A stretch of 64,000 bases of DNA from Gammaproteobacteria bacterium (GTDB taxonomy: Bacteria > Pseudomonadota > Gammaproteobacteria > Steroidobacterales > GCA-2729495), in the NCBI GenBank assembly GCA_049290495.1, contig JBATNV010000318.1:4709-68708 (forward strand), read 5' to 3'. A program made the position numbers and the translations under genes. The notes under the pieces were generated by a model. The model saw only the letters and a list, made by a program, of their open reading frames with translations, searched no databases and had not been told where the DNA came from. This document shows positions 6,635 to 54,681 of this stretch, in pieces. Every line of letters begins with the position of its first letter. Positions within the stretch are counted from its first letter, which is position 1.

Positions 6635-7597
6635 TCAGGCCGGGAAGAAGTCGATGGGCTTGGTCGTTGTCACCGGCGGTACGTCCTTCTCGAGGAAGCG
6701 GAACATGCGGATGCGCTGCACGAGCTTGCGCTCCAGCTCCTGGTCCGCGAGTTCGCTCGAGATGATTTCAACCTGCGACACTTCACCTGAAGCTTCGATG
6801 GTGAGCTTCAGCACCAGCTTGCCCTGCAGCTCCGGGTTTTCGCGCAGCGCACGATTGTAGAGCGCATAGATCGCGCCCTTGTTCTGGTCAAACACGCGCT
6901 CGATTTCTTCACGGCTGCGCGAAGCGCGCTGGCCACCGGCCCCACCGTCCTCGCTTGCACCACCGGAACCACCGCCGCCCAGCGCCGCCAAGCCACTGCT
7001 GACCTGCGTAGTGGAGCGGCCGCCCAGGCCCGAACCGCCAGTGTTGCGACTCATGCCCGCGGTATTGATGCCGCCGCTACCGACACCGGCCTTCGAGGTG
7101 ATCAAGGCACGTTCCACCTGCGGTGAATCACCAACCGCGCCGGTATAACTCGTACCACCCGAGGTGATGCTGTTGAGCGCCTTGCTGTCGCGCAATTCGG
7201 CCAGCTGATCCACGAAGGGCAACAGGCCCGCCTTGCCGGCCTTCTCCCGCGCCGTGGTCTTGCGCTCAGCGGCCGGTCGGGTCTTGCTCTCGGTGGCACG
7301 CTCGGTCGGCGGCACCGGTTCCTGTCGTTGCTGCGGCTCTGGCTGCACCACTGGTGGCGGTGGCAGCGGGATTGGCGCGGGCTTTTCAATCAGGAGGCGC
7401 GCGAGACGCGGCGGCACCGACTGCTTCAGCTGTGGGTCACGCTCCGGTAGCGGGAGCAAGGACATGAGGATACACAGTACGAGTGCCGTAACACCGATCC
7501 GCTGGAGGATGGTACGGAAGCGCTGCTCCTGATCGCCCGCATCATCCCAGGGCAGCAGATAGCTGCGGTAGTAGAGGTTGATCTTTGCGGTGCTCAT
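6635..7597 (-). CDS. TonB-like energy transducer with AgmX/PglI-type C-terminal domain
   Basis: N-terminal TM (IGVTALVLCILMSLLPL), Pro-rich PIPLPPPPVVQPEPQQ, Gly/Ser-rich linker. C-terminus: IERVFDQNKGAIYALYNRALRENPELQGKLVLKLTIEASGEVSQVEII... ATGA overlap with the upstream ExbD gene. Confidence 0.85.
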   Translation of the reverse strand: MSTAKINLYYRSYLLPWDDAGDQEQRFRTILQRIGVTALVLCILMSLLPLPERDPQLKQSVPPRLARLLIEKPAPIPLPPPPVVQPEPQQRQEPVPPTERATESKTRPAAERKTTAREKAGKAGLLPFVDQLAELRDSKALNSITSGGTSYTGAVGDSPQVERALITSKAGVGSGGINTAGMSRNTGGSGLGGRSTTQVSSGLAALGGGGSGGASEDGGAGGQRASRSREEIERVFDQNKGAIYALYNRALRENPELQGKLVLKLTIEASGEVSQVEIISSELADQELERKLVQRIRMFRFLEKDVPPVTTTKPIDFFPA

Positions 7598-8124
7598 AAG
7601 GCCGCCACCTGCGGTGAGGCCGGCGCACCGTCCTTCTGCACGACCGCCAGCGAGATCTGGCCGAAATCAGCGGCAGTACAACTCGCCATCACGCGTTTCA
7701 GCAAACGATAAGGCAGTTCACGATCACCGAGGATCGTCACCTCGCGCAGCGCGATATCGGCCTTGGCCTGCTGGATCATCACGCGGTCGGTCTGCTGCCG
7801 AAGCGCAACTTCAAGTGCCGGAATCACTACGCCCTCGCCACTGAGTGCTTCAGCCACGCTCGCAACCGGGCGGCCCTGCACGAGGATGGTGTCGCCAGTC
7901 ACCATCACGACCACGGTCTCCCGTGCCCGTTCCAGTGCCGCAGACTCCGGCAGCTGGATATCCTTCGGATTCGGCAAGACCTCGGTCTCGCCGGAACTGA
8001 CCAGCAGGAAGAACACCAGGATGGTGAAGATATCCATCATGGACACGAGGTTTAGCCCCGTCCCGGAGCGCTTCATCCGCTTGTGGTGGCGCTCCATGCG
8101 GAGCGCCCGGCGTGACATCTGCAT
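7594..8124 (-). CDS. exbD: biopolymer transport protein ExbD/TolR family
   Basis: 176 aa; ..GLNLVSMMDIFTILVFFLLV.. single TM plus periplasmic domain. Confidence 0.9.
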   Translation of the reverse strand: MQMSRRALRMERHHKRMKRSGTGLNLVSMMDIFTILVFFLLVSSGETEVLPNPKDIQLPESAALERARETVVVMVTGDTILVQGRPVASVAEALSGEGVVIPALEVALRQQTDRVMIQQAKADIALREVTILGDRELPYRLLKRVMASCTAADFGQISLAVVQKDGAPASPQVAAL

Positions 8125-8127
8125 GAC

Positions 8128-8640
8128 TCAGCTTCCCTTTGACGCCGCAGCGCCCAGCAGCGGCGCATCGCCAATCGAAATATCCGGAAACAGCTCTGCC
8201 CGTACCAGCTGTCGGCCCTCACCCACCTCGTAGAAGCGCAGCACGTCCATCACCTGCACCAGCGTGTCGTAAGGCACATCCGGCTCCAGCAGGACCGTCA
8301 CGTTCGACATGTCCGGATAGTTCGACTTCACGCGCTGCAGGTAGGTGGCCAGTCCGTCGAGATCATAGTTCCCCTCCGTACGCGGCAGACGAGTCAGCAG
8401 ACCCTGGCTGCGTTCGCCCACCTCCAGGCCGTCTGCACGCACCGTCACCTCAAGCTGAAAAACCGGCTCCTCGACCGCAGCAGAAGACGCTGCGGGCAGG
8501 TCCAGCTCGATGATGGCCAACCGCGAGAACACCGCCGTGATGAGCAGGAACGGCACCAGCACCACCATCAGGTTCATGAAGGCGGTGATATCCATCTCTG
8601 GCGTTTCGGCCTGCCGTCGCTTTCGCCTGTTACTGCGCAT
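8128..8640 (-). CDS. exbD: biopolymer transport protein ExbD/TolR family
   Basis: 170 aa; ..EMDITAFMNLMVVLVPFLLI.. Confidence 0.9.
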   Translation of the reverse strand: MRSNRRKRRQAETPEMDITAFMNLMVVLVPFLLITAVFSRLAIIELDLPAASSAAVEEPVFQLEVTVRADGLEVGERSQGLLTRLPRTEGNYDLDGLATYLQRVKSNYPDMSNVTVLLEPDVPYDTLVQVMDVLRFYEVGEGRQLVRAELFPDISIGDAPLLGAAASKGS

Positions 8641-8659: not shown

Positions 8660-9310
8660 TCAGGCGGCCGTCTGCTGACGTCGGCGTTCATCGACTGCGT
8701 TGAGAAACTTCACCGAGACCATTTCCAGGCTGTCGATGATCCGCGTGGTCTTGCTCTGCAGGACGGTATGCACGAAGAGCAGCGGAATGGCGACGATCAG
8801 ACCGAAGGCCGTGGTGTTCATCGCCACCGAGATGCTGGCAGAGAGCAGATCGGCTTTCTCGGCCGGATTTGCATTGGCAACAGCGGTAAAGGCCTGGATC
8901 AGCCCGATGATCGTGCCGAGCAGACCGAGCAGCGTGGCGATATTGGCAAAGGTTGCCAGGTAGTGCGTGCGGCTTTCCAGACGCGGCATCACCTCCATCA
9001 GGCTTTCTTCCATCGCCTTCTCGATGTCATCGCGCCGCGTGGTGGTGCGGCTGCGATCCAGGCCGTAGGTGAGGATCGAACCGATCGCGGCATTCGACTT
9101 CGAGGTCAGGCTGGCAGCCTCAGAAAATTTTCCCGCCTGGATGAACGGCGTGATCTTCTTCCACAGCGCCTGATTGCTCACCGACGTCTTTGACAGATAC
9201 ACATAGCGCTCGATCGCTACGGCCAGACCCACCGCGAACACCAGTGCAATCGGGTACATAAAGAACCCGCCGCTCTGCATAAAGTGGACTATCGATGTAT
9301 ACGTTTCCAT
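8660..9310 (-). CDS. exbB: MotA/TolQ/ExbB proton-channel protein
   Basis: 216 aa, three TM segments; ..LATFANIATLLGLLGTIIGLI.. and ..AMNTTAFGLIVAIPLL.. are typical ExbB/TolQ. Confidence 0.92.
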   Translation of the reverse strand: METYTSIVHFMQSGGFFMYPIALVFAVGLAVAIERYVYLSKTSVSNQALWKKITPFIQAGKFSEAASLTSKSNAAIGSILTYGLDRSRTTTRRDDIEKAMEESLMEVMPRLESRTHYLATFANIATLLGLLGTIIGLIQAFTAVANANPAEKADLLSASISVAMNTTAFGLIVAIPLLFVHTVLQSKTTRIIDSLEMVSVKFLNAVDERRRQQTAA

Positions 9311-9373: not shown

Positions 9374-9709
9374 TCATCTGGCCGGGGGCGGCTCCGCGTC
9401 ATACAGTTGATGGAAATAGCGCGTCTGTCGTCGAAACACTTCACGGTCTACGGGGGCGAGGATTTCCTCGACCAGGCTGTTGACCGGCCGGCCGGCAAGC
9501 TCGGCCATGGCCGCGTCCTTCCAGGGCACGATGTACATGACCTTCGGCAGTTCCTGGTTGCCACGAATGGCCGTGGCGTCGAGGTTTAGCGCCGTAGCGG
9601 CTGGCGAAGCGACAGCAGCCGGTGCGGCTGAATCTTCGGCGCGGGCCATACCGCCGGTCAGCAGCGCACACAGCAGCAAGGCAGTTCTGCCTGGCGGTAT
9701 CGGCTTCAC
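9374..9709 (-). CDS. secreted protein, hypothetical
   Basis: 111 aa with signal peptide (..LLLCALLTGGMARA). ATGA overlap with the upstream TPR gene. Confidence 0.7.
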   Translation of the reverse strand: MKPIPPGRTALLLCALLTGGMARAEDSAAPAAVASPAATALNLDATAIRGNQELPKVMYIVPWKDAAMAELAGRPVNSLVEEILAPVDREVFRRQTRYFHQLYDAEPPPAR

Positions 9710-10338
9710 GTCGCGCCCTCTGCTCTTGCAGTGGTCGGCATCGCCGAGACGCGGCGCCGCAGGTCGGCGATCCAGCGCTCGACATCGGCATTGCTGTCGT
9801 CTGCCGCGAGGCTGAGGTATTGCTGATAGTTGACCAGCGCAAGCTCAGGTCGCTGGATGTAGAGGTCATAAAGGACGGCAAGGTTGTAGTAAGCGAGCGC
9901 ATAACCCGCATCGAGCTCGACGGCCTTCAGATAGGCCCGCTCGGATTCACTGAACTGCCCCTGCTGCCGGTACAGCACACCGAGACCGTTCCACACCGGC
10001 GCACAGCTAGTGCACACCGCGGAGGCCTTTTCGAAATAGTCGCGCGCCGCGGCCTCGTCGCCCTGCCGCATGCGCAGCAGCGCAAGGTTCAACAGCGGAC
10101 CGGCCAGCTCCGGATGCGCAACACTGAGAGCCTGCAGCGCACGCTCTGCAGCAGCGTCATCGCCGGCTTGTACGGCGGACAGCGCTGCCGAGTAGTCCGC
10201 CATCACCGCTGGCGACGGGCCTGTGTCTGCAACAGTCGGTGCGTTTTTCGCCGCACGCTCGCCGCCCGCCAGACTGCAGCTCACGCAGAACAGGGCGGCG
10301 AGAACTGCAGCAGCTCTAGTCAATCGTTGTAATGACAT
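9706..10338 (-). CDS. TPR-repeat lipoprotein
   Basis: Lipobox ..LFCVSC; TPR-like repeats (..AYLKAVELDAGYALAYYNLAVLY..). Confidence 0.8.
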   Translation of the reverse strand: MSLQRLTRAAAVLAALFCVSCSLAGGERAAKNAPTVADTGPSPAVMADYSAALSAVQAGDDAAAERALQALSVAHPELAGPLLNLALLRMRQGDEAAARDYFEKASAVCTSCAPVWNGLGVLYRQQGQFSESERAYLKAVELDAGYALAYYNLAVLYDLYIQRPELALVNYQQYLSLAADDSNADVERWIADLRRRVSAMPTTARAEGAT

Positions 10339-13141
10339 CTTCGCTCCTTTCAGTGCGCGACCAGCGCGCCGGAACCATCACGGCCAGACGCGCGTAGCTC
10401 GCGCGTACCCACTCGTCATAGACGCCATCGCCGGCGCGTTCAGCATTCACGCGATAGAGATCGATGGCCTTTTCTTCGAAGGGAAACGCCTGCTCTTCAA
10501 GCAGCACGTCGTATTGCTCGGACTCATCCGCATCCAGGTCCTTTGGCCGCTCCGAGGCGAGCAGGTCGCGACTCAGCTGGTAGTAGAGATCCGCTGTTTC
10601 AAAGGTTGCCGCGGTGGTGACCTGCGCGACGCCATAGTCAGCCGCCTGCCCATAGGCCTGCAGCGCCTGCTCCATGCGGGTTTTTTTCAGCTTGAGGCTC
10701 TTGTCCAGTGGCGCGGTGAGCACCACGGCGTTGAAGGCATCGCGCATGGGCCTGGCGAGTTCGATAGCGCTGCTGGCGGCCAGGAAGCGGCTGCGGTCGC
10801 TGCGCTCTGCCCCCATGTCACGATCCGTTTTCACGATGGCTTCAAGCCAGCCCTTGCGGGTTTGCCAGTCGTTGTCTGCACCGGCGAGATCAGCCAGCTT
10901 GAGTCGTGCCTCCAGCGCTTCGCTGGCCGGTACCGGAAAGCGCGTGACGAGCGCGGTGTAGACCCGCACCTCTCCATCGTGCTGGTCTGCAGCCACGTAC
11001 AACTCTGCGGCCTGCCACAGCGCCGAGCGCTGCACGTCCGCCGCTGCGTCAGCGCTGCCGGCAATGCGCTCGTACTCGGCCGCCGCCTCTGCGCCGCGTC
11101 CGCCTTCGCGCAGCGCCACAGCCAGCTTGGCCGTGACATCGCTATTGAACTGATGCTCGGGAAATTCGCGCCGGAAGCGCTGCAGGAGATCCACCGACTC
11201 GTTCCAGCGCTGGCTGGTCAGGAGCAGCGTAGCGGCATCGAAGAGCGCACTCGGCCGGATGTCAGCATCCGGGGCCGCCGCATCGATGCGCAGGAAATCA
11301 GCCACCGCCGCATCCACATCACCACCCGCCTGGGCGAGCTCCGCCTGTCTATAGATCGAGGCAGCGATGCGACCTTCCACTTCGCGTCCGGCGGCCGGAT
11401 CTGCTTCGAGGCCACGCAGACGGACATAGGCCGACTCTGCCTCGGCATAGTGCGCGAGATCAAACTGGGCGTGTCCCATGACAGTCCAGGCGACACGCTC
11501 GAGCTCTGGCGTCACTGGCGGCTGCATCGTGACAACGAGTCCGGCGACCTCAGCCGCCCGCTCAGGCTGCTGACTGGCGTAGAGCTGTTCGGCAACGTTG
11601 GTCAGTACCGCACCCGCCTGCGGGTGGGCGGGAAAATCCGCCGCAAAGCGCAGCGCCTGTTCGATGTGTCCGGTATGCCAGGCGAGTTGCGCTTCACCGG
11701 CAAGCCGCTTTTCGTGCTCGCCCGAAGCCAGCAGCGCGGCATAGCCGGCCTCGGCCGACTTTTCCTGCCGTCCATAGTTATAGGCGGCATTCAGATAGGC
11801 ATCGCGTGCCGTATCGAAATGCTGTGCCTCGAAGAGCAGATCGCCGAGCAGAAAGCTGCGCTCCGCCGATTGCGGATCATCGGGGAAGTACGCGAGCGAC
11901 AGCCGGTACCAGCCGGCAGCCCGTTCGTAGTCGGCCGGCAGCTTGCTGCGCTGGGCCAGCGCGTGGTCGTACTGCGCCAGATCGCCCAGATGCAATTTCA
12001 GCTGCGCGACAAGCTGCGGATAGTCATCGACGCTACGGTCTTGCCAGAACGGTGCATCGAGACCGTAGGTCGCAACGTATTTCTGCTTGGCCTCAAGCAC
12101 GAGGTCCGGGAACTTGCCTCGCGTATAGGCATCGATCGCAGCCTGCAACAGATTGGGGGCCTGCGCATTGACCGGATCCCGCGCCACGAATGCCGCATAA
12201 CTTTCAGCGGCGTCCTGAAAGCGCTCCTTGTCCAGATAGAGGTCACCGAGCGCCGTGTACACCAGATAGGTCCAGGCGGGATCACCATACGGCACCAGCG
12301 CAGGTGGAATGGAATCGGCACCATCAAGGTAGGAAAGACTGATGCTGACCACGCGCAGTGTGTCATCAAGCAATTCACGCTCGGGCCGGCTCATGGCCTG
12401 TATCTGCTGATCCGGCGCGCTGGCATCGCTGCTCAGGCGACGATCGATCAGACTGAGGAAGGCGCTAAGGCCCTCTTCGTAGCGGCTCTGCTTGAACAGC
12501 GCCCAGCCGTACTTGTAGAGCGACTGCTCGTAATAGGGCGAAGCGGGCCCGCTGGCGAGGACCGCTGCATAAGCTTGCTCGGCCCCGGCATAGTTCTGCC
12601 GTATCGACCAGGTTTCACCGCGACGGAACTGGGCTTCGTCGCCATGCACTGCAGAGGGCGATTCCGCAACCAGACGATCCAGCGTGGCCAGCGATTCATC
12701 GCCGCGACCAGCGCCTTCCAGCGCCCTGGCCAGCTGATAGATGACTTCACTTCGCGCTTCGCCCGTCAGCGCCGTGTCCGTATCAACCGATTCGAGAAGC
12801 TGGCCATACAGGCCGATGGCTTCCGCGTAATGACTGGCGCCGGCACCGGCTTGCTCCGCAGAGCTCTCAAGTTCAGTTGCCGCATCCAGGTTCAGGTCGG
12901 CAAGACGACGCATGGCCTCGGCACGCATGCTGGCCGGCCCGGTATCCAGCGCCAGAAAACGGCGGTACTCCTGCATGGCTTGCGCGCTGCTGTCGACAGA
13001 CGGCAGGCCGGTGTGAATTTCCAGCGGCTTCGCCTTCAGGCTGCCGATGGTCTGACGGTCCGCCTCCGGTGTTCTGGACGCAAACGGCCACAGGCCGCCC
13101 GCCAGCGTGACCCCGAGCATCAGTGCCGCGGTGGCGCTCAT
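10316..13141 (-). CDS. large periplasmic TPR-repeat protein (941 aa)
   Basis: Signal peptide followed by many TPR-like A/L/Y-rich repeats. Overlaps both neighbours, so it is operonic. Confidence 0.85.
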   Translation of the reverse strand: MSATAALMLGVTLAGGLWPFASRTPEADRQTIGSLKAKPLEIHTGLPSVDSSAQAMQEYRRFLALDTGPASMRAEAMRRLADLNLDAATELESSAEQAGAGASHYAEAIGLYGQLLESVDTDTALTGEARSEVIYQLARALEGAGRGDESLATLDRLVAESPSAVHGDEAQFRRGETWSIRQNYAGAEQAYAAVLASGPASPYYEQSLYKYGWALFKQSRYEEGLSAFLSLIDRRLSSDASAPDQQIQAMSRPERELLDDTLRVVSISLSYLDGADSIPPALVPYGDPAWTYLVYTALGDLYLDKERFQDAAESYAAFVARDPVNAQAPNLLQAAIDAYTRGKFPDLVLEAKQKYVATYGLDAPFWQDRSVDDYPQLVAQLKLHLGDLAQYDHALAQRSKLPADYERAAGWYRLSLAYFPDDPQSAERSFLLGDLLFEAQHFDTARDAYLNAAYNYGRQEKSAEAGYAALLASGEHEKRLAGEAQLAWHTGHIEQALRFAADFPAHPQAGAVLTNVAEQLYASQQPERAAEVAGLVVTMQPPVTPELERVAWTVMGHAQFDLAHYAEAESAYVRLRGLEADPAAGREVEGRIAASIYRQAELAQAGGDVDAAVADFLRIDAAAPDADIRPSALFDAATLLLTSQRWNESVDLLQRFRREFPEHQFNSDVTAKLAVALREGGRGAEAAAEYERIAGSADAAADVQRSALWQAAELYVAADQHDGEVRVYTALVTRFPVPASEALEARLKLADLAGADNDWQTRKGWLEAIVKTDRDMGAERSDRSRFLAASSAIELARPMRDAFNAVVLTAPLDKSLKLKKTRMEQALQAYGQAADYGVAQVTTAATFETADLYYQLSRDLLASERPKDLDADESEQYDVLLEEQAFPFEEKAIDLYRVNAERAGDGVYDEWVRASYARLAVMVPARWSRTERSEDVITTID

Positions 13142-15048
13142 GGTGCACTGCCTTTAGGCGCCACGGCGCGCACGGACGAGGCCGCACGGTCGTAAATCGT
13201 GGCCAGCGCAAAGCGGGCCTGCACGCGATAACTCAGCAGGCGATCGCGCTGCTCGCTGAGCGCATCGATGGCCATCGCCTGCAGGCGCTGCTCTTCAGTG
13301 CCGCGGTCACGCGCCAGGGCCGCCTGCATGTTATGGATGCGTGGCGTGAGTGCCGCGATATGTGCGGAGAATCGATCCAGCTCTGCTGGCGTATCGTGCC
13401 AGGCGGCCAGACCCGATGCATGCGCGGCCTGCGCCTTCATCAGCGCGGCATCGATCCGGGCGAGCTCACGCTGCTGCTGCCACAACCGGTATTGATAGTC
13501 GCGATCGAGATCCCAGCTCAGCACGCCCTTCAACAGGCGATAGCGCTCGCGGACATCGCTGGCCGCTGCGTCCGCCAACTGCGGACTGGCACCCAGTGCT
13601 TCGAGACGCTGCCAGCGATCGAGCTCTTCAGTAGTCGCAAGCCCGGCAATATCGCGTGACTCCGCAACCTGCTCCAGATGCGCCGCCAGCGCATCACGCC
13701 GCGCCTGCAGCGACTCGAGACTGGCCTCATCGAGACCGGCAGCAACGCGCTGCTCACGTTGCGCATAAGCCGTGCGACGCGTCTCCACCATCTGCTCAAA
13801 GGCGGAGAGCTTTGCCTGCCACTCATCGAGATTGACTGACAGCGCGGCAAGGTCACGCACATTGCGCAGGCCTTCCTGAAAGCCGTGCCGCGCAACCAGG
13901 TCGTACAGGTAACGCGTTTCAATGCTGTCAGGCACAGTATCGAGCTGCCAGTACCAGCGCCCGATCCGCGCATCATCGGCACTGAGCATCGCGGGGATCA
14001 ACTGGCCGGCGCGACTGCCGTCAATCGCAGCATCGAGTTTGCCGATCTCGGTATCGTAAGCATCCAGCGCAGCCTGGTAGCCGGCCGCCGCCTCGCTGTG
14101 TGCGTCGAGCCTGGCCCAGGCATAGGGAATCGCGAGCAGCGACTCCTGTACCGCACTGTCGAGCAGATCGCGGTCACGCAACTCCAGCCAGGGTGTCAGG
14201 GCAGCGCGGTAGTCCTGCGTCGCTGCATCCGCCCACCCGGCACCGAGCAGCGCCTTTGCGGAGAAGGGTCCGTTCAATCGCACCCGCGCAAGTACCGGAC
14301 GCGCTTCACCATCGCGGCCCTGCTGCAGATAGAGATAGCCGAGCGCGAGATTGGCCTTGTCACGCAGGTCGCGCAGTTCAGGCGTATCAGCCGTGCTTCG
14401 GCCCAGTTGATCGAGCTGGCGGATCGCATCCTCTGGCCGGTTGAGCCGCACCAGGGCAACGCCCAGGTTGTAGCGCGCGTAGGCCACCCAGCTTTCCGGG
14501 CCCTGCCAGCCATCGAGTACGGCAACCGCAGCGTCGAAACGACCGAGCGCGAGGTAAGCCTGTGCCTTGAGCATCGGCAGTTCAGCATCCAGGCTCTCGG
14601 GCAGCTTGCCGGAGACGCGGTCGAAGGCCTCCAGCGCCTCCGCATACAGGCTGCGCTGGTAGCGCACCTTGCCCAGGTAGAACCAGGCGCGGTTGCGCAC
14701 TTCAGGTTCAGATGAATCCTGCAACAGACGGCTGAAAATCTGCTCAGCGCGAATGTGCTGGCCATAATGCAGATACAGGCCACCGAGCAGCAGCTCGGAT
14801 TCAGCCTCGTGATTGGCGACACGACCCGCATCACGGTCAACCAGCAGATGTGTCAACGCATCAAAATGCTCGTCCTGGTAAAACTGGAACAGGACTTCGC
14901 CATAGTAAAGATCACGCACCACCGCGCCGCTCACCGGTTCAGCGGCAGCTGCTGAAGCGCTGCCAGCGAGGAACAGCAAGGCGATCAGGCCCCGCAGGCT
15001 GAATCGCCTGTGGCCTGGTGCCGGGATACTGTTGCGAGTCAGGAACAC
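13138..15048 (-). CDS. TPR plus coiled-coil protein (636 aa)
   Basis: Signal peptide (..LFLAGSASAAAA). N-terminal TPR half, C-terminal long Ala/Arg/Gln-rich helical half. Confidence 0.85.
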   Translation of the reverse strand: MFLTRNSIPAPGHRRFSLRGLIALLFLAGSASAAAAEPVSGAVVRDLYYGEVLFQFYQDEHFDALTHLLVDRDAGRVANHEAESELLLGGLYLHYGQHIRAEQIFSRLLQDSSEPEVRNRAWFYLGKVRYQRSLYAEALEAFDRVSGKLPESLDAELPMLKAQAYLALGRFDAAVAVLDGWQGPESWVAYARYNLGVALVRLNRPEDAIRQLDQLGRSTADTPELRDLRDKANLALGYLYLQQGRDGEARPVLARVRLNGPFSAKALLGAGWADAATQDYRAALTPWLELRDRDLLDSAVQESLLAIPYAWARLDAHSEAAAGYQAALDAYDTEIGKLDAAIDGSRAGQLIPAMLSADDARIGRWYWQLDTVPDSIETRYLYDLVARHGFQEGLRNVRDLAALSVNLDEWQAKLSAFEQMVETRRTAYAQREQRVAAGLDEASLESLQARRDALAAHLEQVAESRDIAGLATTEELDRWQRLEALGASPQLADAAASDVRERYRLLKGVLSWDLDRDYQYRLWQQQRELARIDAALMKAQAAHASGLAAWHDTPAELDRFSAHIAALTPRIHNMQAALARDRGTEEQRLQAMAIDALSEQRDRLLSYRVQARFALATIYDRAASSVRAVAPKGSAP

Positions 15049-15057
15049 AGCAGCTCC

Positions 15058-15621
15058 CTACTCCCACTCGCGCACAACGAACTCGGGTTGCTGGGCACTC
15101 TGCCGGTCGGAAATTCGCAACTCGACAAACTTGGCACCCACGCCCTTCTCGACTTTCAGCGTCGCGCCGCGCCGGTAGTCGCGCTCATGCGGCCCCTGAC
15201 CGGTAAACACTGCGGTCAGTTCATGCTCGCCCGTCTTGAGGTTACCGAGATACAGGCGATGGACACCACCGCGCAGCAGGGCCTTTAACTCACGCTCGGT
15301 ATACAGGTAGTTGCTGATCGGCTTGTCATCGATCTTCAGCTGCACGGAATCCAGTGCAAAAAATTCGCCGACATCCATCGACACAAAAACGGCGACCTGC
15401 GTGTTGGCAGGGAACAGCAGTTCCTCTTCCAGCATGAACAGCTCGCGATTGAGATCCAGCACATCGTCCTTCAGCGTCTGCATCTGCGTATCAACGCCGG
15501 AAGCGGCAACGACCGGCACAGCGACGGGCGCCACGGTCTCACTGCTGCTGGCCGCTCGGGTAGCCAGCGCGCCACCCAGCAGCAGTGCAGTCAGGCAGAT
15601 GTTCATGGTTAAACGGTTCAT
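15058..15621 (-). CDS. secreted protein, hypothetical
   Basis: ATG at 15621 preferred (GGAG 7 nt upstream). Signal peptide MNRLTMNICLTALLLGGALATRA. Confidence 0.75.
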   Translation of the reverse strand: MNRLTMNICLTALLLGGALATRAASSSETVAPVAVPVVAASGVDTQMQTLKDDVLDLNRELFMLEEELLFPANTQVAVFVSMDVGEFFALDSVQLKIDDKPISNYLYTERELKALLRGGVHRLYLGNLKTGEHELTAVFTGQGPHERDYRRGATLKVEKGVGAKFVELRISDRQSAQQPEFVVREWE

Positions 15622-15649
15622 CGCATTACTCCGCATCAGTCAGCAACGT

Positions 15650-16141
15650 TCATTCCGAAATCAGGGCAGACAGTTCATCGGTATAGGTCGTGGCGTCTTC
15701 AGCGCGGTATCCGGCATACACCTGGCGGACAGTGCCGTGCGGGTCGACGAGTACGGCAAAAGGAAGAACAGAAGGGTCGTACTCACGGACCACCGACTGA
15801 TCGGCGTCGTGCAGGATGGTGATACCCAGACGTTTTGCAGCATCCCGGGCAGGTTGATCATCTGTATCGATGTTCACGGCAAGGATGCGCAGATTCGCAT
15901 CGCCAAAACGGTGCTGCAGATCGCGGAGCATGGCCAACTGCTCACTGCAGCGGTTGCACCACTGCGCCCAGAAGCTGACAAGTACAACCTGGCCGCGATA
16001 CTCCGACAAACGCAAATTGGTGCCTGCGCTGCTCTTGAGTGCGAAATCGGGCGCCGGCTGACCGGCAAGCCCGGAGCTGGCCGGAACGGCGACGGGTAGG
16101 AGCAGCACAGCGAGTGCCAGGGAAATGCCACTCCGGCGCAT
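15650..16141 (-). CDS. TlpA/redoxin-family thiol:disulfide oxidoreductase
   Basis: ..VVLVSFWAQWCNRCSEQL.. thioredoxin motif after a signal/anchor (MRRSGISLALAVLLLPV). ORF-track start 16300 rejected because it lies inside the leader hairpin. Confidence 0.85.
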   Translation of the reverse strand: MRRSGISLALAVLLLPVAVPASSGLAGQPAPDFALKSSAGTNLRLSEYRGQVVLVSFWAQWCNRCSEQLAMLRDLQHRFGDANLRILAVNIDTDDQPARDAAKRLGITILHDADQSVVREYDPSVLPFAVLVDPHGTVRQVYAGYRAEDATTYTDELSALISE

Positions 16142-16287
16142 GAACGCGCGAAGCAGCACAGCGCCTGTACTGCGCCTCTGTCCGTGCTGCTGACCGATGA
16201 TCTTCAAAGCCTGTCTCCGCGGAACCAGCACAGCGCTGGTGCTCACACACAGACAAGGAAAACAGCTAGAAGATAGAGGGGACGCAT

Positions 16288-16311
16288 GACGCAGGCCCAC
16301 AGGCCTGCGTC
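16288..16311 (-). terminator. GC-rich hairpin directly after the riboswitch aptamer (possible expression platform)
   Basis: Perfect 10-bp stem GACGCAGGCC/GGCCTGCGTC with a 4-nt loop. Its 5' arm abuts the AAUCCUG segment that can pair back into the aptamer. The downstream tract is pyrimidine-rich but not a clean U-run. Confidence 0.4.
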
Positions 16312-16452
16312 AGGATTCGGCAGCTCCGCTGTCCTGGGTGCAGCTCGCAGCAAGCGAGGCGCCGTTAGACCGGTGGCTTTGCGTCCCCGCCTTTCAGCGG
16401 GTTTGCCTTTGTCGCCCGGAATGGTGACGATTTGACGGCAGGAATCCTGCGA
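16312..16452 (-). ncRNA. c-di-GMP-I (GEMM-I) riboswitch, candidate; boundaries approximate
   Basis: Reverse complement of 16362-16416 is GGCGACAAAGGCAAACCCGCUGAAAGGCGGGGACGCAAAGCCACCGGUCUAACGG. It matches the remembered GEMM-I core (GGCAAACC, GAAA-capped hairpin, GGGACGCAAAGCC, CCGGnCUAA) almost position for position. CAGGAUU (16443-16449) and AAUCCUG (16311-16317) can close the element. Confidence 0.7.
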
Positions 16453-16513
16453 CTTCGCTCACGTTAGACAGATTGCCGGTTAAAACCCGCGTGCTTATGT
16501 CAAAGCCGCGGTG

Positions 16514-17212
16514 TCAGGGTGTGCCGGCAAGGCGAAACATCCGGTAGTACTCGGTACTTTCAGTACCCCAGCGTACCGCACCGCTATCGTCGACGAACTG
16601 CCCCCAGAACTGGTATTCGTCAGGCCGGATAACCACGGCATCGCGCGCATAGAGCGTGGTTTTCAGCCCCTCGCTGTACAGCGTACAGGCCCGCTCCTGC
16701 ATGACGCCGGAAACCTCGGTGCCCTCGGCATTGGCGGTCAGCACAAAGTCACAGCCCGGCTTTACGTCGACGTCAGCCATCGTGAGCTGCTGCAACAGTT
16801 CCGGCTTCTGGTATGCATTCTTCCACCGCTCAGCGTCACGGAAATTAAGTTCGCGCTGCACCAGCTTGCCGGTCTGCGGGTCGATGAAATACTGCAGCAA
16901 TCCGATACGGATCAGCGACGGCGGACTGAAGCTGCCATCCACCGACGCGTGCTGATAAACCAGAAAGCCGTCGATACCAGGAATCCCCGCCGTCAGCGGC
17001 GCAAAGAACTGGTATAGCTGGCGGTGAATCTGTTCCGGCGGCAACTTCCGCGTCAGGTCGCTCTCAAACTGCGCCGTGTTGCTGTACCGGCCATGTACCC
17101 AGGCGCGCACCAGGCTGAGCGTCCCCGCAGCAGCATCCGGTTTGGGTGCCGCACTGAGAGGTGCGATGGCACCAAGCAACAAAGCCAGGCAAAGAATAGT
17201 GCAGTTGCGCAT
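16514..17212 (-). CDS. CpcT/CpeT-like (bilin-lyase fold) protein with signal peptide
   Basis: ..WVHGRYSNTAQF.., ..KPGCDFVL.., ..CTLYSEG..WG.. follow the CpcT/CpeT (DUF1001) pattern. N-terminal signal peptide MRNCTILCLALLLGAIAPLSA. Confidence 0.7.
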   Translation of the reverse strand: MRNCTILCLALLLGAIAPLSAAPKPDAAAGTLSLVRAWVHGRYSNTAQFESDLTRKLPPEQIHRQLYQFFAPLTAGIPGIDGFLVYQHASVDGSFSPPSLIRIGLLQYFIDPQTGKLVQRELNFRDAERWKNAYQKPELLQQLTMADVDVKPGCDFVLTANAEGTEVSGVMQERACTLYSEGLKTTLYARDAVVIRPDEYQFWGQFVDDSGAVRWGTESTEYYRMFRLAGTP

Positions 17213-21297: not shown

Positions 21298-22311
21298 TCA
21301 GTCGGCAGCCAGCGCCTTGGAGAACCGCACTTTGCGACCGGCATCGATGATCACGGCCGCGTAACCAGGGGTCGCTTCGATCAGGGCCAGGCCGCGTTCA
21401 GGTCCGAGCACGAACACACTCGTTGAAAGGCCGTCGGTGAGTGTCGCGTCAGGACCGATGATGGTCACACTGCGGACGCCCGCCACCGGCTTGCCACTCT
21501 TTGGATCGAGGATATGGTGATAGCGCACGCCGTCTTCGTCAAAGAAGCGCTCGTAGTCGCCGGAGGTTGAGATCGCCTCGTCATCGAGTGCCAGGCGCGT
21601 CACCCACTTTGACTCGTCATCCGGATCACGAATGCCAACTACCCAGGGCTTGCCGCGCCGGTCACCCAGGAGACGCGTATCGCCGCCCGCATTGACTAGC
21701 GCATTGGTGACGCCGGCCTTGCGCAGTAACGCCACCACCTGCTCGCAGGACCAGCCCTTGGCGATGCCACCCAGGTTGATCCGCGTACCCGGCCGCGTGA
21801 AGCGTATGGTCGACTTGCCGGCATCGAGCAGGACGTGACGGTAGTTGATGGCATCGAGATTGTTCGCAATTTTCGCTTCGCTAGGCCGCTCATGAGCACG
21901 GAAGTCATAGAGGTAGCCCACGCTGTCGTAGGTGATGTCGAAGGCCCCACCGGTCTGCACAGACAGTGCCAGCGAACGGCGCACCAGCGCGAAGAGTTCG
22001 GCCGACACAACCACCGGCACAGTAGCGGCATCCCGGTTAACCACGGAGATCTCGGAACTCGCACGGTAGGTGCTCATCTCGACTTCGATGCGATCGAACT
22101 CGGCCATGCCGGCGGCGATCAGCTGCCTGGCCTGCGACTCATCATCCATCCAGAGCTGGATTTCGACGCGCGTACCCATCTTGTCCTGCTGCTCTCCGAA
22201 CCAGGCAGCACTGGCGGACAGCGGGAGAAAGACAGCAAGCAGGCTGGCGACCCAGCGAATGCGGAGCGCGTCAGAACCAGAGTGAAACGAAGAACTGCAG
22301 CACGTTGGCAT
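21298..22311 (-). CDS. apbE: FAD:protein FMN transferase ApbE
   Basis: ..MGTRVEIQLW.., ..GGAFDIT.., ..NLGGIAKGW.., ..AISTSGDYERFF..HILDPKSG.. Start uncertain; the ATG at 22311 gives a signal peptide and overlaps the upstream gene. Confidence 0.88.
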   Translation of the reverse strand: MPTCCSSSFHSGSDALRIRWVASLLAVFLPLSASAAWFGEQQDKMGTRVEIQLWMDDESQARQLIAAGMAEFDRIEVEMSTYRASSEISVVNRDAATVPVVVSAELFALVRRSLALSVQTGGAFDITYDSVGYLYDFRAHERPSEAKIANNLDAINYRHVLLDAGKSTIRFTRPGTRINLGGIAKGWSCEQVVALLRKAGVTNALVNAGGDTRLLGDRRGKPWVVGIRDPDDESKWVTRLALDDEAISTSGDYERFFDEDGVRYHHILDPKSGKPVAGVRSVTIIGPDATLTDGLSTSVFVLGPERGLALIEATPGYAAVIIDAGRKVRFSKALAAD

Positions 22312-23395
22312 CGAATTCATAAAGGGGCTCCGCACCAACGGCGCCACCGCCGTTAACATCGCGGAAATCATCATAGCTGTAGGTGTAGTGATCGAGAACC
22401 AGATTCACCGTACTGCGCAGGGGGCGGTCACCTGCCCTGTCGAGCCAGGTATAGCTCACCGCGACATGCGGGCCGTAGCTCTGGAACTTGCTCAGCTCCT
22501 TGTCACGGCCCATGTAGTTCTGCGCGTCGGCATAAGGGAACAGGTCGGAATAGAAGTCCGCAGCGTTCTGACTGTAGTAGCGATAGCGAACATCCACCAT
22601 CCACCGGTCACGCCAGGGCTGCACATAACCGATGTCAAACGTCTGCGCGTCTACACCCCAGTCATCAGTGAAGAAGCGGTATCCGCCCGAAACTGCTGCC
22701 CGATATGGCAAGTGATAGCGGATGCTGATTGCAGCGGCATTGCTGGCGCGGGTATCTGGATAAACCTCGCCCTGCCAGCCATATCCGGCGGCCTGGCCTG
22801 CATCCACATACCGCACCTGGCGATAGGGATTGTTCAGATAGCCCTCATCGGCGATCGCCTCATAGTTGAAGCTTGCCAACAGGTTCCTGGTCAGAATCTG
22901 CGTGATGCCCAGGCGGTAGGCATGCCGCTTGATCTGGCCAGAGAATGCTGAATCGCCGCGCTTGCTGACATCATCGGAGCCACTGCCATAACCGAGGGTA
23001 ATGGTGGTCAGGCCGTTGAAGATGTCCTGGCTGATGCCGAAATTCACGGTCTCTGCGTTGTAGTCGTTCTCATCGCTGCTACTGAAGCCAAAGCTCAGCG
23101 TGGTGTCCTCATGCAGGTAATCGGCGCCGACACCCCACTGTTTGCGCTCTTCAGAGTATTTGCTGGCCGTGGTGATGACGTCAATCGACGCACTGCTGAT
23201 GCTGTCCACGTAATAGCTGGCGGAGAGTGAAACTTTCTCGTTGACCGACTTGCGTACCAGCAATGACGGCCCGTCAATCTGCACGCCGCCGCCATCGTAA
23301 TAATGATAGAGGGCATCGGCACGCTCCTCGGGCAGCACACCGGCAATCGCCGCACTCACAGACAGGATCAGCAGTGTGCCGGTGCGCCACATCAT
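22271..23395 (-). CDS. DUF3570-like outer-membrane beta-barrel protein
   Basis: 374 aa, signal peptide, alternating Tyr/Gly-rich beta-strand pattern, C-terminal ..FFVSLWF. Confidence 0.8.
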   Translation of the reverse strand: MMWRTGTLLILSVSAAIAGVLPEERADALYHYYDGGGVQIDGPSLLVRKSVNEKVSLSASYYVDSISSASIDVITTASKYSEERKQWGVGADYLHEDTTLSFGFSSSDENDYNAETVNFGISQDIFNGLTTITLGYGSGSDDVSKRGDSAFSGQIKRHAYRLGITQILTRNLLASFNYEAIADEGYLNNPYRQVRYVDAGQAAGYGWQGEVYPDTRASNAAAISIRYHLPYRAAVSGGYRFFTDDWGVDAQTFDIGYVQPWRDRWMVDVRYRYYSQNAADFYSDLFPYADAQNYMGRDKELSKFQSYGPHVAVSYTWLDRAGDRPLRSTVNLVLDHYTYSYDDFRDVNGGGAVGAEPLYEFDANVLQFFVSLWF

Positions 23396-23620
23396 CTAGT
23401 TACACCCGCAGCCGCCGCCGGCACTGCCGGTGGCGCCACGCGATGCCTCGCGCGCTTCATGGACGTGATCGAGATAGGTACTGGAGACAGGATTGCGGTC
23501 AAAACTCATGATCGGGTCGGCCAGCCGGTCGCGCTCATAGGGCTTTACCCACGGCTCGACATTGCTGCACCCGGCCAGCAGCATGACGGCACCGAGGAAT
23601 ACAGCCAGCGCCGCTTTCAT
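23396..23620 (-). CDS. DUF4266-like small lipoprotein
   Basis: 74 aa; lipobox LLAGC; C-terminus ..EAREASRGATGSAGGGCGCN. Directly abuts the DUF3570 gene. Confidence 0.8.
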   Translation of the reverse strand: MKAALAVFLGAVMLLAGCSNVEPWVKPYERDRLADPIMSFDRNPVSSTYLDHVHEAREASRGATGSAGGGCGCN

Positions 23621-24132
23621 GTGCGCTCCCGTATCAGCTGGCGGATGACGTCCTGGTAAACGCTTTCGTCACCCGCCTGGTAACCCTGGTGGATGAAGCG
23701 GATATTGCCCTTGCGATCGACGATCACCGTACTCGGCATCGCGGCCACATCGTAGAGCTTGCTGACCCGGTTGGCCGGATCCAGGAGCACCGGGAAGGTC
23801 ACCGGCACATCGCCAAGAAAGGCTTCCATCTGCGTGGTGTCCTCTTCGACATTGACACCGAGCATGGTGAAGCCGAGCGGTGCATACTTTTTCTGGATCT
23901 GCTCGAGCAATGGCATTTCCTTGCGGCACGGACCGCACCAGGTCGCCCAGAAATTGATCAGCACAACCTGCCCACGCAACGAAGTGAGGGATACGGCCTG
24001 GCCGTTGCGGGATGGCAGACTGAAGTCAGCTGCTGGACCTGTTGCCTCACCCGCCGCGACCGGCAAGGACATCAGCAGACCCGACAGGCACGCAACCCGC
24101 ACAAACCGGAGCAGTTTTCTGCGCATATTCAC
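23617..24132 (-). CDS. TlpA-family thiol:disulfide oxidoreductase
   Basis: ..VVLINFWATWCGPCRKEMP.. after a signal peptide. Confidence 0.9.
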   Translation of the reverse strand: MNMRRKLLRFVRVACLSGLLMSLPVAAGEATGPAADFSLPSRNGQAVSLTSLRGQVVLINFWATWCGPCRKEMPLLEQIQKKYAPLGFTMLGVNVEEDTTQMEAFLGDVPVTFPVLLDPANRVSKLYDVAAMPSTVIVDRKGNIRFIHQGYQAGDESVYQDVIRQLIRERT

Positions 24133-24133
24133 C

Positions 24134-24811
24134 TCAGAAGAACCAGCTCAGGCCGAGCGTGAACTCGATGTTGTTGGTGGTCTTGTCTTCACCACTGATG
24201 TCGTCATCGAACAGGTGGTCGCGCACATCGAAGTGCAGGCCGATGGCATCTGTGAGCAGCAGCCGGTAGCCGCCGCCAAAGCTCAGGGTGAACATGTCTT
24301 CGTCGTGGAAGGTGGTGTTGCCGGCGCCGGCCACCACATAGAACGCCGAATTGAAGGCGTGGTTCTTGCCGATGAACACTTCGCCGGGCAGCAGGTTGTA
24401 GCCCAGCGAGAGGTCGTAATACTTGTATTTTCGGTCACTGCCGAAGGACAGGTCATAGTTACCGAGGATCTCGGCACTCGACTTGTCGACCTCGCCGGTC
24501 TGCGCATAAGTCGCTTCGGCGAACAGGCCTTCCGTTACATGGTAGGCAAGACGCGCGCCGACCACTGAGTTGGTACCGAAGTCCTCAACGCTCATCATGC
24601 CGTAGTAGCCGGTGACCTCGAAGTCCTCGCTGTCGATCTTCGGCGGCGCCACGTCGCGACGTTCGATGCGCGGATCGATGACCGGCGAGGATGCGTTTGC
24701 ATCTTCCGCAGGCTCGCGCGACCGGCCCAGCAGTGAGCAGCCAGCCGTAGCAGCCAGCAGCAGGGCCATGGCCGCTGCCCTCAGAAGAAGAAAGTGAATC
24801 CGGCTTTCCAT
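24134..24811 (-). CDS. outer-membrane beta-barrel lipoprotein (OMP_myx_plus-like)
   Basis: Lipobox ..LAATAGC; C-terminal ..IEFTLGLSWFF. Begins 1 nt upstream of the next gene. Confidence 0.8.
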   Translation of the reverse strand: MESRIHFLLLRAAAMALLLAATAGCSLLGRSREPAEDANASSPVIDPRIERRDVAPPKIDSEDFEVTGYYGMMSVEDFGTNSVVGARLAYHVTEGLFAEATYAQTGEVDKSSAEILGNYDLSFGSDRKYKYYDLSLGYNLLPGEVFIGKNHAFNSAFYVVAGAGNTTFHDEDMFTLSFGGGYRLLLTDAIGLHFDVRDHLFDDDISGEDKTTNNIEFTLGLSWFF

Positions 24812-25521
24812 TCGTCCAGTTCCTCGTTGTCGTCATTACTGGTGAAGACCAGGTAGCTTGAATACTCGGCACGGAACATGAAGCGCTTCGTCACGTAGAT
24901 ACGCGCACCGAGCCCTACGTGTCCCACCTGGTCGCTCCGGTCTTCGGTACTCACCAGGGTTGCTTTTGGATTGATCTGGATAATCCCCGTGCCCAGCAGG
25001 GCGAAGGGTGAAATGCGCCAGGCCGGAAACGGCTGATGCACGATATCCACGGTCGCCAGCAAGCCATCGGAATAGTCCCCGCTCACATCACCCACCCTGG
25101 CCTCCACCGACAGGTTGCGGGTCAGGTGGTAGCCCGCGTACACGGATATCACGCTCGCACCATCCAGATCGCCGAGTCCGACGCCGGCTTCCCAGCGGCG
25201 GGCCTTGTAGTCATCGACATCCGGGTCCTTGATCTTCGTTGCGGAGCCACTGACGTCGAGCGTGGCGCTCATCTCCTCGAGCTTCACCCAGCCCTTGGTA
25301 CCGCGGTCGGTCCGCACCTGGAACCAGTCCGTACGTCGCTTCAGGACTTCAATGTGCTGACCACGATCTACGACATGAAACACCGGAAAGCCCCGCCCTG
25401 GACCGGTGTGGAGCTCGAGAAAGGGCTCGGCAACCACCGCTTCATAGTGGGCGGTTTTTGCATAAGCGGGTGTGACGAGGGCCAAGGAAACCAGCATCAG
25501 CATGACGACGACTGTACGCAT
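24781..25521 (-). CDS. SH3-domain plus outer-membrane beta-barrel protein
   Basis: ATG at 25521 with AGGA upstream; signal peptide MRTVVVMLMLVSLALVTPAYA. SH3-like ..GQHIEVLKRRTDWFQVRTDRGTKGWV..; C-terminal ..WKAGFTFFF. Confidence 0.8.
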   Translation of the reverse strand: MRTVVVMLMLVSLALVTPAYAKTAHYEAVVAEPFLELHTGPGRGFPVFHVVDRGQHIEVLKRRTDWFQVRTDRGTKGWVKLEEMSATLDVSGSATKIKDPDVDDYKARRWEAGVGLGDLDGASVISVYAGYHLTRNLSVEARVGDVSGDYSDGLLATVDIVHQPFPAWRISPFALLGTGIIQINPKATLVSTEDRSDQVGHVGLGARIYVTKRFMFRAEYSSYLVFTSNDDNEELDEWKAGFTFFF

Positions 25522-25538
25522 CGGTGTTTCCTGCAGAC

Positions 25539-28178: not shown

Positions 28179-28370
28179 CACCATCCCTGTCACAGCCTGC
28201 CCAAGACTGTGTGTGCATCTGACCTGATGCGCGGCGCCCAATCGCCTGCCAGCTAACCTAATGCATAGCGATTTGAACGAACTGTTAAGGCGGTCACAGA
28301 ACCCCGGGCCGCTGATAACGATAAATGCTCAACGGCGTGCAATGCGCCGCGTTACCGGGATGGGCACAAG

Positions 28371-46100: not shown

Positions 46101-46309
46101 GGCTTTAACTCCCTGAGGTTTTCTGAGCGTCTGTCACCGCCGGCCCTCCACCCCGACTTGAGCGCAGAGGTTGCGCCAGCATCACAAGGCTGTGTGTCGC
46201 GACGTGGACAAAACAGCCAAAGAGAGTCGGCGAGAGCCCATGCACAGGATCTTTTTCACGCCGAACGTCAGCGCGCCGACACACGCAGGGAGGCCGCTTG
46301 TCAGAATTA

Positions 46310-46325
46310 TGTCAAGCGGGTGACA
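46310..46325. promoter_or_regulatory. Crp/Fnr-type palindrome TGTCA-N6-TGACA
   Basis: TGTCAAGCGGGTGACA, perfect 5-6-5 inverted repeat, 75-90 nt upstream of the Crp-family gene. An extra TGTCA half-site lies at 46299-46303. Confidence 0.4.
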
Positions 46326-46399
46326 GACCAGGTGACTGGCCCGAACAACACTGCTGTACGGGCGGACGTGGGGATTCACACGACGCGAGGGCAAGGCCA

Positions 46400-47101
46400 A
46401 TGAACACGGCACGGGCAATTTTTCAGAACAACGAACTGCTGCGATATCTGGACAGCAGCGGCCTGGAGCGGGTAGCACAGGTGGCTACACGACGGAGCTA
46501 TTGCGGGAACACAACGATCTACGCACACGGCGATCCGCCCGATGCGATCTACGGCGTTATCGCCGGCCAGGTGCAGATCAGCTCAAGAACCTCGGGCCTC
46601 GATGAAGTCTTTCTGGGCAACTACAGCTCTGGCCGGATTTTTGGCCTGGTTTCTGTCATCGACGGCCTGCCTCGATGCGTAACCGCACGAGCTGCACCCA
46701 AAGCCGAAGTATTTACCATCTGTCGCGACAAGTTCCTGCGCCTGCTGGCGAGCGATTCCCTGCTGGCCCTGAGCCTGCTCAATGTGTTCTGCCGGCATGA
46801 ACGGATCGCCACCCGGATGATCACCGATGAATACGCCCTGAGAAGTGTGCCAGCGCGCCTCGCGCACCGCGTTCTGGAACTGGCCGGGCCGTACAACAGC
46901 GATCAGGGTTCTGCCGACCACGCCGTAGAGATCACCCAGGCCGGCCTCGCCAAGTACGTCTTCGTCTCACGCCAGGTCGTCAACCAGTATCTCGGCGAAT
47001 GGCAAAGCCGGGGCTGGGTATCCACCTCGCGCTGCCGCGTGATCGTGACGAATCGCAAGGCGCTGGCAACCGTCGCGACCAACGGCGGCGGGCATGCATG
47101 A
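46400..47101 (+). CDS. Crp/Fnr-family transcriptional regulator
   Basis: GAGG upstream of the ATG at 46400. cNMP-binding beta-roll (..GDPPDAIYGVIAGQVQIS..GRIFGLVSVIDG..) and C-terminal HTH (..ITQAGLAKYVFVSRQVVNQYLGEW..). Confidence 0.88.
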   Translation: MNTARAIFQNNELLRYLDSSGLERVAQVATRRSYCGNTTIYAHGDPPDAIYGVIAGQVQISSRTSGLDEVFLGNYSSGRIFGLVSVIDGLPRCVTARAAPKAEVFTICRDKFLRLLASDSLLALSLLNVFCRHERIATRMITDEYALRSVPARLAHRVLELAGPYNSDQGSADHAVEITQAGLAKYVFVSRQVVNQYLGEWQSRGWVSTSRCRVIVTNRKALATVATNGGGHA

Positions 47102-54672: not shown

Positions 54673-54681
54673 CGCCTGGCT

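Follow-up and report, generated by a model that had tools for sequence, protein, structure and literature searches.

Two described systems come together at the locus discussed here, which was read from a 64,000-nucleotide (nt) stretch of DNA (hereafter the window) of a Gammaproteobacteria bacterium, contig JBATNV010000318.1: a riboswitch predicted to sense cyclic di-GMP (c-di-GMP), and the envelope operon that lies behind it on the minus strand. The riboswitch class is known as c-di-GMP-I or GEMM-I (Rfam RF01051), with the Vc2 RNA of Vibrio cholerae as an example. In the crystal structures of Vc2, the two guanines of c-di-GMP have A47 stacked between them. The guanines themselves are read by G20 and C92, and an A at position 20 marks the relatives that sense cyclic AMP-GMP (c-AMP-GMP, cGAMP) (PMC6140456).

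The operon has its closest described counterpart in the Agl-Glt “core complex”, a set of genes (aglRQS with gltD/E/C, gltG and one extra gene) that occurs in Gammaproteobacteria, Geobacter and Fibrobacter and whose function is unknown (Luciano et al. 2011, PMC3169522). This complex is presumed to be the ancestor of the gliding and spore-coat motors of the myxobacteria.

The aptamer and its detection

A cmscan search of the whole 64-kb window against Rfam 15 reported only one family at its gathering threshold, a match to RF03167 (c-di-GMP-I-GGC) at 16416-16315 on the minus strand, with 71.3 bits against a gathering score of 59 and an E-value of 6.6e-15. The identical match was obtained when the search was confined to 16100-16600, and a match of this quality is far beyond chance. 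Clan competition was used in cmscan, by which the best-scoring family of each clan is reported; a second family of the same clan (CL00126) also reached or exceeded its own gathering score at 16416-16315. The RF01051 match that had been proposed for this place is thus upheld at the level of the clan, while the best model is a different one. The parts of the element, as read from the Rfam architecture, are the following.

16315-16416, minus strand: c-di-GMP-I aptamer (Rfam RF03167, 71.3 bits; our own model R1, 91.6 bits; covariation on 30 sequences)
16416/16414-16413 with 16315/16318-16319, minus strand: helix P1 (Rfam architecture)
16401-16386, minus strand: helix P1a, with its GAAA loop at 16395-16392
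16378-16368 with 16333-16322, minus strand: helix P1b
16407, 16380 and 16320, minus strand: the ligand-contact positions G20, A47 and C92, mapped from the Rfam consensus structure lines and alignments

The element is very probably a c-di-GMP-I (GEMM-I) riboswitch that would bind c-di-GMP, as the original prediction had called it, because the Rfam score, the canonical ligand-contact bases, the 29 orthologous copies with covariation and the place in front of a syntenic operon all point the same way. The 55-nt string on which that prediction was founded (minus strand, 16416->16362) is present letter for letter. With RF01051 and Vc2 the window shares P1, the GAAA-capped P1a and P1b, the cores GGCAAACC and GGGACGCAAAGCC, the bases G20, A47 and C92, and the placement in a 5' leader before genes of the envelope or motility type. 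It differs in the tetraloop-receptor region of P1b, which is degenerate (CUAAC...CAGGA against the consensus CUAAG...UAUG, with the GAAA loop of P1a present; the orthologs have CUACGG...UAUGA or UAGGA), and in an extra internal hairpin. The target differs as well, since an operon with an ExbBD-type motor, tetratricopeptide repeat (TPR) proteins and an AgmX-like transducer is not among the targets found in the literature searched.

Conservation and covariation

For comparison, 80 loci from species-representative genomes were gathered by alignment of a 192-residue protein encoded in the operon; all are from uncultured Gammaproteobacteria, many of them labelled Steroidobacteraceae, and they are referred to below by number (L001 and so on). 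With a strict regular expression the aptamer turned up in nine of the 80. A covariance model (R1) was then made from these nine loci and the window, using the Rfam architecture, and it recovered the aptamer in 29 of the 80 loci and in the window with scores of 41.6-98.6 bits (window 91.6), the next-best score being 17.8. A fold of the first 10 sequences by RNAalifold had mis-paired G20 and C92 as a helix and was set aside in favour of the Rfam architecture.

In the resulting alignment of 30 sequences and 21 base pairs, 94.9% of the cells are standard pairs, and nine of the 21 pairs have changed on both sides in a compensatory way. In 500 column shuffles none of the observed measures of pairing was attained, and sliding the 3' partners by 1-3 columns brought the pairing down to 31-56%. 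P1 is the weakest helix, with 75.6% paired. Helices P1, P1a and P1b are backed by covariation. The lowest-scoring copy (41.6 bits), at 335-421 of L009, carries a U at the equivalent of C92; it may be in decay or have an altered specificity.

Which family: RF01051 or RF03167

The name of the winning model brings up the matter of ligand specificity. RF03167 is the top Rfam family for the window and for six of the nine orthologs tested; for the other three the best model is RF01051 (L029, 77.3 bits; L027, 59.3; L067, 57.9; gathering score 35). Were the element a true member of the c-di-GMP-I-GGC class, the intercalating A47 would be a G and the ligand specificity might be altered. We take “GGC” to stand for positions 20, 47 and 92, a usage that reportedly goes back to a 2017 variant survey. 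In the cmscan alignment the window departs from the RF03167 consensus exactly there: the consensus reads GGGACGC-G-AAgCc with a conserved G, and the window reads GGGACGC-A-AAGCC (GACGCAAAGCC). The RF01051 consensus as aligned to L029, GACGCAAAgCc, equals the window sequence around position 47.

The orthologs tell the same story. Each of the nine, whether assigned to one model or to the other, has A at position 47; across the 30 aligned sequences G20 and A47 never vary, and C92 is found in 29 of the 30, L009 having the U mentioned above. Thus the G at position 47 that defines the GGC variant is replaced by A16380 in the window and by A in every other sequence. Because A stands at this position in the window and the orthologs whichever model wins, the aptamer is, as judged from its contact bases, a canonical c-di-GMP-I aptamer, and the RF03167 label is an artefact of model competition. 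Membership of the GGC class is accordingly very improbable. The higher score of RF03167 would most simply be due to likeness elsewhere in the model, whose P1a and core are near-identical to those of the window and which was probably built from related bacteria; RF01051, with its consensus A, probably exceeds its threshold in the window too. The c-AMP-GMP (GEMM-Ib) riboswitches of Geobacter share the fold and the clan, but they have A at position 20 (PMC6140456), where the window has G16407 and all 30 sequences have G.

There is a practical caution in this result. RF03167 outscores its parent on seven sequences with the canonical A47 (the window and six of the nine orthologs), and labelling these automatically as specificity variants would be wrong.

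The operon downstream

The riboswitch lies in the 5' leader of an operon with nine to ten genes; these follow one another with overlaps or gaps of <=23 nt, save for one gap of ~395 nt. Matches to Pfam and NCBIfam show the earlier description of it (a redoxin, three TPR proteins, ExbB, two ExbD and a TonB-like protein of the AgmX/PglI type) to be essentially correct.

15650-16207, minus strand: secreted TlpA/ResA-like redoxin (AhpC-TSA / Redoxin fold), the first gene (PF00578, 1.6e-24; PF08534, 1.1e-20; NCBIfam)
15058-15636, minus strand: 192-residue exported protein of extreme conservation, with no Pfam or NCBIfam family
13138-15048, minus strand: TPR protein of 636 residues (Pfam TPR families)
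10316-13141, minus strand: TPR protein of 941 residues (Pfam TPR families)
9706-10338, minus strand: TPR protein of 210 residues (Pfam TPR families)
8660-9310, minus strand: ExbB/TolQ-like protein (PF01618, 1.2e-30)
8128-8640 and 7594-8124, minus strand: two ExbD/TolR-like proteins (PF02472, 8.8e-17 and 3.4e-13)
6635-7597, minus strand: TonB-like protein with an AgmX/PglI C-terminal domain (NF033768, 69.5 bits against a cutoff of 40)

As far as its genes and their domain matches go, this operon corresponds to the Agl-Glt core complex. Both have, in a single operon, one TolQ/ExbB-like protein, two TolR/ExbD-like proteins, three TPR proteins and one TonB-like protein of the GltG/AgmX type, together with one further conserved gene that has no Myxococcus homolog. 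The window operon differs in having a redoxin gene in first place and in its riboswitch, as PMC3169522 describes no riboswitch control of the complex. The 192-residue protein is probably the “additional gene” of Luciano et al. (2011); it has at least 7999 homologs, shows 66-94% identity across diverse Gammaproteobacteria and keeps 92 invariant columns in 17 sequences. The TPR proteins have weak NCBIfam matches to YbgF, PorW and GltE, and the matches to the GltG, GltJ and GltE equivalogs are far under their cutoffs, which is expected for distant relatives.

By tblastn, the gene order is kept in essentially all 80 loci. In 27 syntenic loci ~20-350 nt separate the aptamer from the aligned portion of the redoxin gene downstream, and in L014 and L050 the aptamer lies ~5 kb further upstream, where it heads an extended operon that continues into the 192-residue protein and the TPR/ExbBD genes. 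The extra genes of this extended operon (L014, 2806-10438; L050, 2629-10531) encode an HZS_alpha-like beta-propeller of ~1000 residues, a 172-residue protein, an SH3 domain with an outer-membrane protein (OMP) barrel, another OMP barrel, a redoxin and a DUF3570 protein. In the window the same extra genes, plus ApbE, form a separate cluster 5-12 kb off, at 21298-28241 on the minus strand. Since one riboswitch heads both gene sets in L014 and L050, this arrangement suggests that the extra set (HZS-alpha-like protein, OMP barrels and DUF3570) is functionally linked to the motor operon.

A side observation concerns the history of these genes. Over the 80 loci, the identity of ExbB to that of the window is ~55-60% in most aptamer-bearing loci as against ~65-70% in many that have no aptamer, while in the closest clade the trend is reversed for the TPR protein of 636 residues, a hint that the motor and the TPR genes have had discordant histories.

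The start of the first gene

The redoxin had been taken to begin at ATG 16141. A likelier start lies upstream, where GGAGACAGG (16218-16210) is followed at the right spacing by TTG 16207.

16205-16218, minus strand: probable ribosome-binding site and start (GGAG, 16218-16215; AGACAGG, 16216-16210; TTG, 16207-16205)

In L001, the closest relative, GGAGACAGG precedes an ATG that stands in the column of TTG 16207, and GTG stands in that of ATG 16141; L003 has GCA at the position of ATG 16141, with the frame open upstream. We consider TTG 16207 fairly probable as the start because of the spacing of its Shine-Dalgarno (SD) sequence, the ATG in that column of L001 and the GCA that stands in place of ATG 16141 in L003.

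The expression platform

How the aptamer might act on this start depends on the leader that lies between them, and in this part two features stand out.

16288-16311, minus strand: perfect 10-bp GC-rich hairpin, GACGCAGGCC-UGUG-GGCCUGCGUC, directly after the 3' strand of P1
16252-16286, minus strand: anti-aptamer (switching) tract, complementary to the 5' half of the aptamer

What comes after the hairpin is AUGCGUCCCCUCUAUC and not a U tract; a hairpin of different sequence sits at the same place in the closest orthologs (L001, L029, L047 and L007). In the tract, UGCGUCCCC (16286-16278) is complementary to GGGGACGCA of the aptamer (16388-16380), and the remainder is complementary, with bulges, to 16413-16389; within it, GUUUUCCUUGUC (16263-16252) matches aptamer GACAAAGGCAAAC (16413-16401) with one bulge and one mismatch. 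The 3' end of the tract, CCUUGUCU (16258-16251), is at the same time an anti-SD sequence that pairs with AGACAGG (16216-16210). The two duplexes open to the anti-SD are about equal, at -12.1 kcal/mol with the aptamer 5' segment and -10.4 kcal/mol with the SD arm.

When 16470-16180 is folded, the minimum free energy (MFE) is -118.1 kcal/mol for the free RNA and -105.5 kcal/mol with the aptamer enforced. The free MFE structure contains the GGGGACGCA:UGCGUCCCC helix, with more 5' bases of the aptamer paired to the tract that follows, and the fully extended pairing of tract and aptamer lies only 3.2 kcal/mol above the MFE. The layout of aptamer, hairpin and GCGUCCC recurs in L001, L067, L027 and L007, with near-matches in L047 (GCGUCUCC) and L029 (ACGUCCCC), and in L027 and L067 a GGGACG “aptamer mimic” adjoins the start codon. 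Measured against dinucleotide shuffles, the duplex between aptamer half and leader has a z-score of -1.96 in the window, -2.9 in L001, -3.9 in L029, -2.6 in L007 and -1.75 in L047; the z-score is not significant in other types of platform.

These features can be put together in a model of an OFF switch. With no c-di-GMP at hand, the tract would pair with the nascent aptamer (GGGGACGCA:UGCGUCCCC and beyond), so that the anti-SD would be occupied and the ribosome-binding site free. Binding of c-di-GMP would close the aptamer and free the tract, whose 3' end could then pair with the ribosome-binding site and lower the translation of the first gene. Control of this kind would probably be kinetic, that is, co-transcriptional, and the exposed C/U-rich tract might also let Rho act. 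The OFF direction is suggested by the three-part logic of aptamer segment, shared anti-sequence and SD arm; for that direction, and for translation as the level of control, our confidence in the model is evenly balanced. The explanation taken whole, with a canonical c-di-GMP-I aptamer heading the operon and a predicted OFF mechanism at the level of translation, we regard as likely.

Several observations weigh against this explanation. By our own model, about 50 of the 80 orthologous operons have no aptamer, and the riboswitch must therefore be dispensable for the operon; no Rfam family reached its threshold in the 11 aptamer-less loci that were scanned. The duplex z-score of the window is modest (p ~0.04), and those of L027, L067, L006 and L022 are not significant. 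The start codon is inferred rather than mapped, and no sigma-70 consensus promoter was found in the leader region. The model is weakest on the equilibrium accessibility of the SD, which was compared between the free and the aptamer-enforced state for the window and 21 orthologs (22 sequences). In the window and in L001 the SD is ~90% paired either way, with an accessibility of 0.11 in the free and 0.10 in the aptamer-enforced state for the window, and 0.12 in both for L001. As the SD is paired in both states, thermodynamics alone predicts no switch, and the OFF model needs kinetic control. Over the 22 sequences there is no consistent change, and the comparison does not settle ON versus OFF.

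The mixed sign of these changes leaves some room for the same canonical aptamer to work as an ON switch, by which c-di-GMP would raise the expression of the operon. Enforcing the aptamer makes the SD or start codon more accessible, by prediction, in L036 (0.14 to 0.25), L021 (0.20 to 0.30) and L018 (0.23 to 0.34), and the SD less accessible in L007, L005 and L067. In general, c-di-GMP commonly induces surface and adhesion functions, and a TPR-bearing envelope machine could serve such a function. In the clade of the window, however, the anti-SD is contiguous with the anti-aptamer tract, and closure of the aptamer should free it for the SD. These points against an ON switch are not decisive, and we consider it fairly unlikely.

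Control could also be exerted on transcription, either with the C/U-rich tract (16287-16240), freed by ligand binding, as a loading site for Rho that would end transcription prematurely, or with the 16311-16288 hairpin causing a pause or termination. Pyrimidines prevail in the tract (62 nt with C 18, U 23, G 15 and A 6), which becomes single-stranded only on formation of the aptamer, and an SD that looks constitutively paired at equilibrium leaves room for an output other than translation. Yet the G content of the tract is not especially low, and the C/U richness is lost in L029, L027 and L067. The hairpin, for its part, was rejected as an intrinsic terminator: it has no U tract, and a search of the minus strand from 16000 to 16700 brought up no intrinsic terminator. 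On balance, transcriptional control appears unlikely.

The upstream motif and the earlier platform

A different platform had been proposed at the outset, in which CAGGAUU (16449-16443) would act as a toggle, pairing either locally, in the hairpin GCAGGAUUCCUGC, or with AAUCCUG (16317-16311), a distal segment directly beside the 10-bp hairpin (16311-16288). The coordinates of all three are correct, both segments exist and are identical in L001, and up to 8 bp could form between them (CAGGAUUC with GAAUCCUG). Nevertheless, L001 is too close to be informative, and the long-range helix occurs in neither the free nor the aptamer-enforced MFE. L007 keeps GUCGCAGGAUUCC, but no AAUCCUG follows its aptamer. 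Together with a hairpin that has no U tract, these observations make the toggle highly doubtful. The CAGGAUU segment belongs to a longer motif.

16438-16468, minus strand: 5' leader or promoter-proximal motif UCUAACGUGAGCGAAGUCGCAGGAUUCCUGC, 31 nt, which holds the local hairpin 16450-16438

The motif UCUAACGUGAGCGAAGUCGCAGGAUUCCUGC is identical in L001 while its flanks vary, and it is largely retained as GUCGCAGGAUUCC in the more distant L007. Because L007 keeps it with no distal AAUCCUG, it seems to be a conserved sequence element, perhaps a promoter or start region or a binding site, and not a pairing partner. Related strings of the form (G/A)UC(G/A)CAGGAA are seen upstream of the aptamer in L006, L029 and L027.

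Further upstream, at 16482-16511 on the minus strand and right after the stop of the CpeT/DUF1001 gene, there is a terminator-like hairpin, CCGCG...CGCGG followed by UUUU, which shows a compensatory change in L001 and has a conserved TTGACA in its long loop. A promoter candidate picked by eye, TTGACA (16502-16497) with TAACGT, was dropped for want of an acceptable spacing.

Other nucleotide-signalling genes in the window

The window had also been said to have c-di-GMP as a local theme, with an HD-GYP protein and a LapG-like protease encoded in it. Nucleotide-signalling genes form a cluster far from the riboswitch, namely a CHASE2-adenylate/guanylate cyclase, two Crp-like regulators that bind cyclic nucleotide monophosphates and an HD_5 protein (46298-47101, plus strand; 52459-55371 and 58229-60346, minus strand).

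58229-60346, minus strand: HD_5 (HD-GYP-type) protein, 42 kb from the riboswitch

The HD-GYP-type gene is therefore there, but at a distance, and no LapG-like protease was found among the 36 open reading frames of the window that were scanned, a scan that mostly left out frames under 220 residues. The case for a local c-di-GMP theme is weak.

Possible meaning for the core complex

The riboswitch class is a textbook one and the present copy is found by standard Rfam annotation; the novelty lies in the target operon. A literature search gave no link of a c-di-GMP riboswitch to ExbB, TolQ, TonB-type motors or Steroidobacter, and the association of riboswitch and operon appears to be unreported. 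It is possible, if still a little doubtful, that the riboswitch places the Agl-Glt core complex, an orphan proton-driven machine of the envelope, under the direct control of c-di-GMP in a clade of uncultured Gammaproteobacteria/Steroidobacteraceae.

If this is true, the machine would serve a function in a surface lifestyle, such as adhesion, the handling of a surface polymer or motility, and the riboswitch would be the first regulatory handle on the role of the core complex outside Myxococcus. It would also link, through the copies in two relatives, the HZS-alpha-like beta-propeller, the outer-membrane barrels and DUF3570 to the machine. Agl-Glt-like core complexes are widespread in Gammaproteobacteria and have no known function; a riboswitch at 29 of the 80 loci offers a testable clue that they may have a role in the decision between motile and sessile life.

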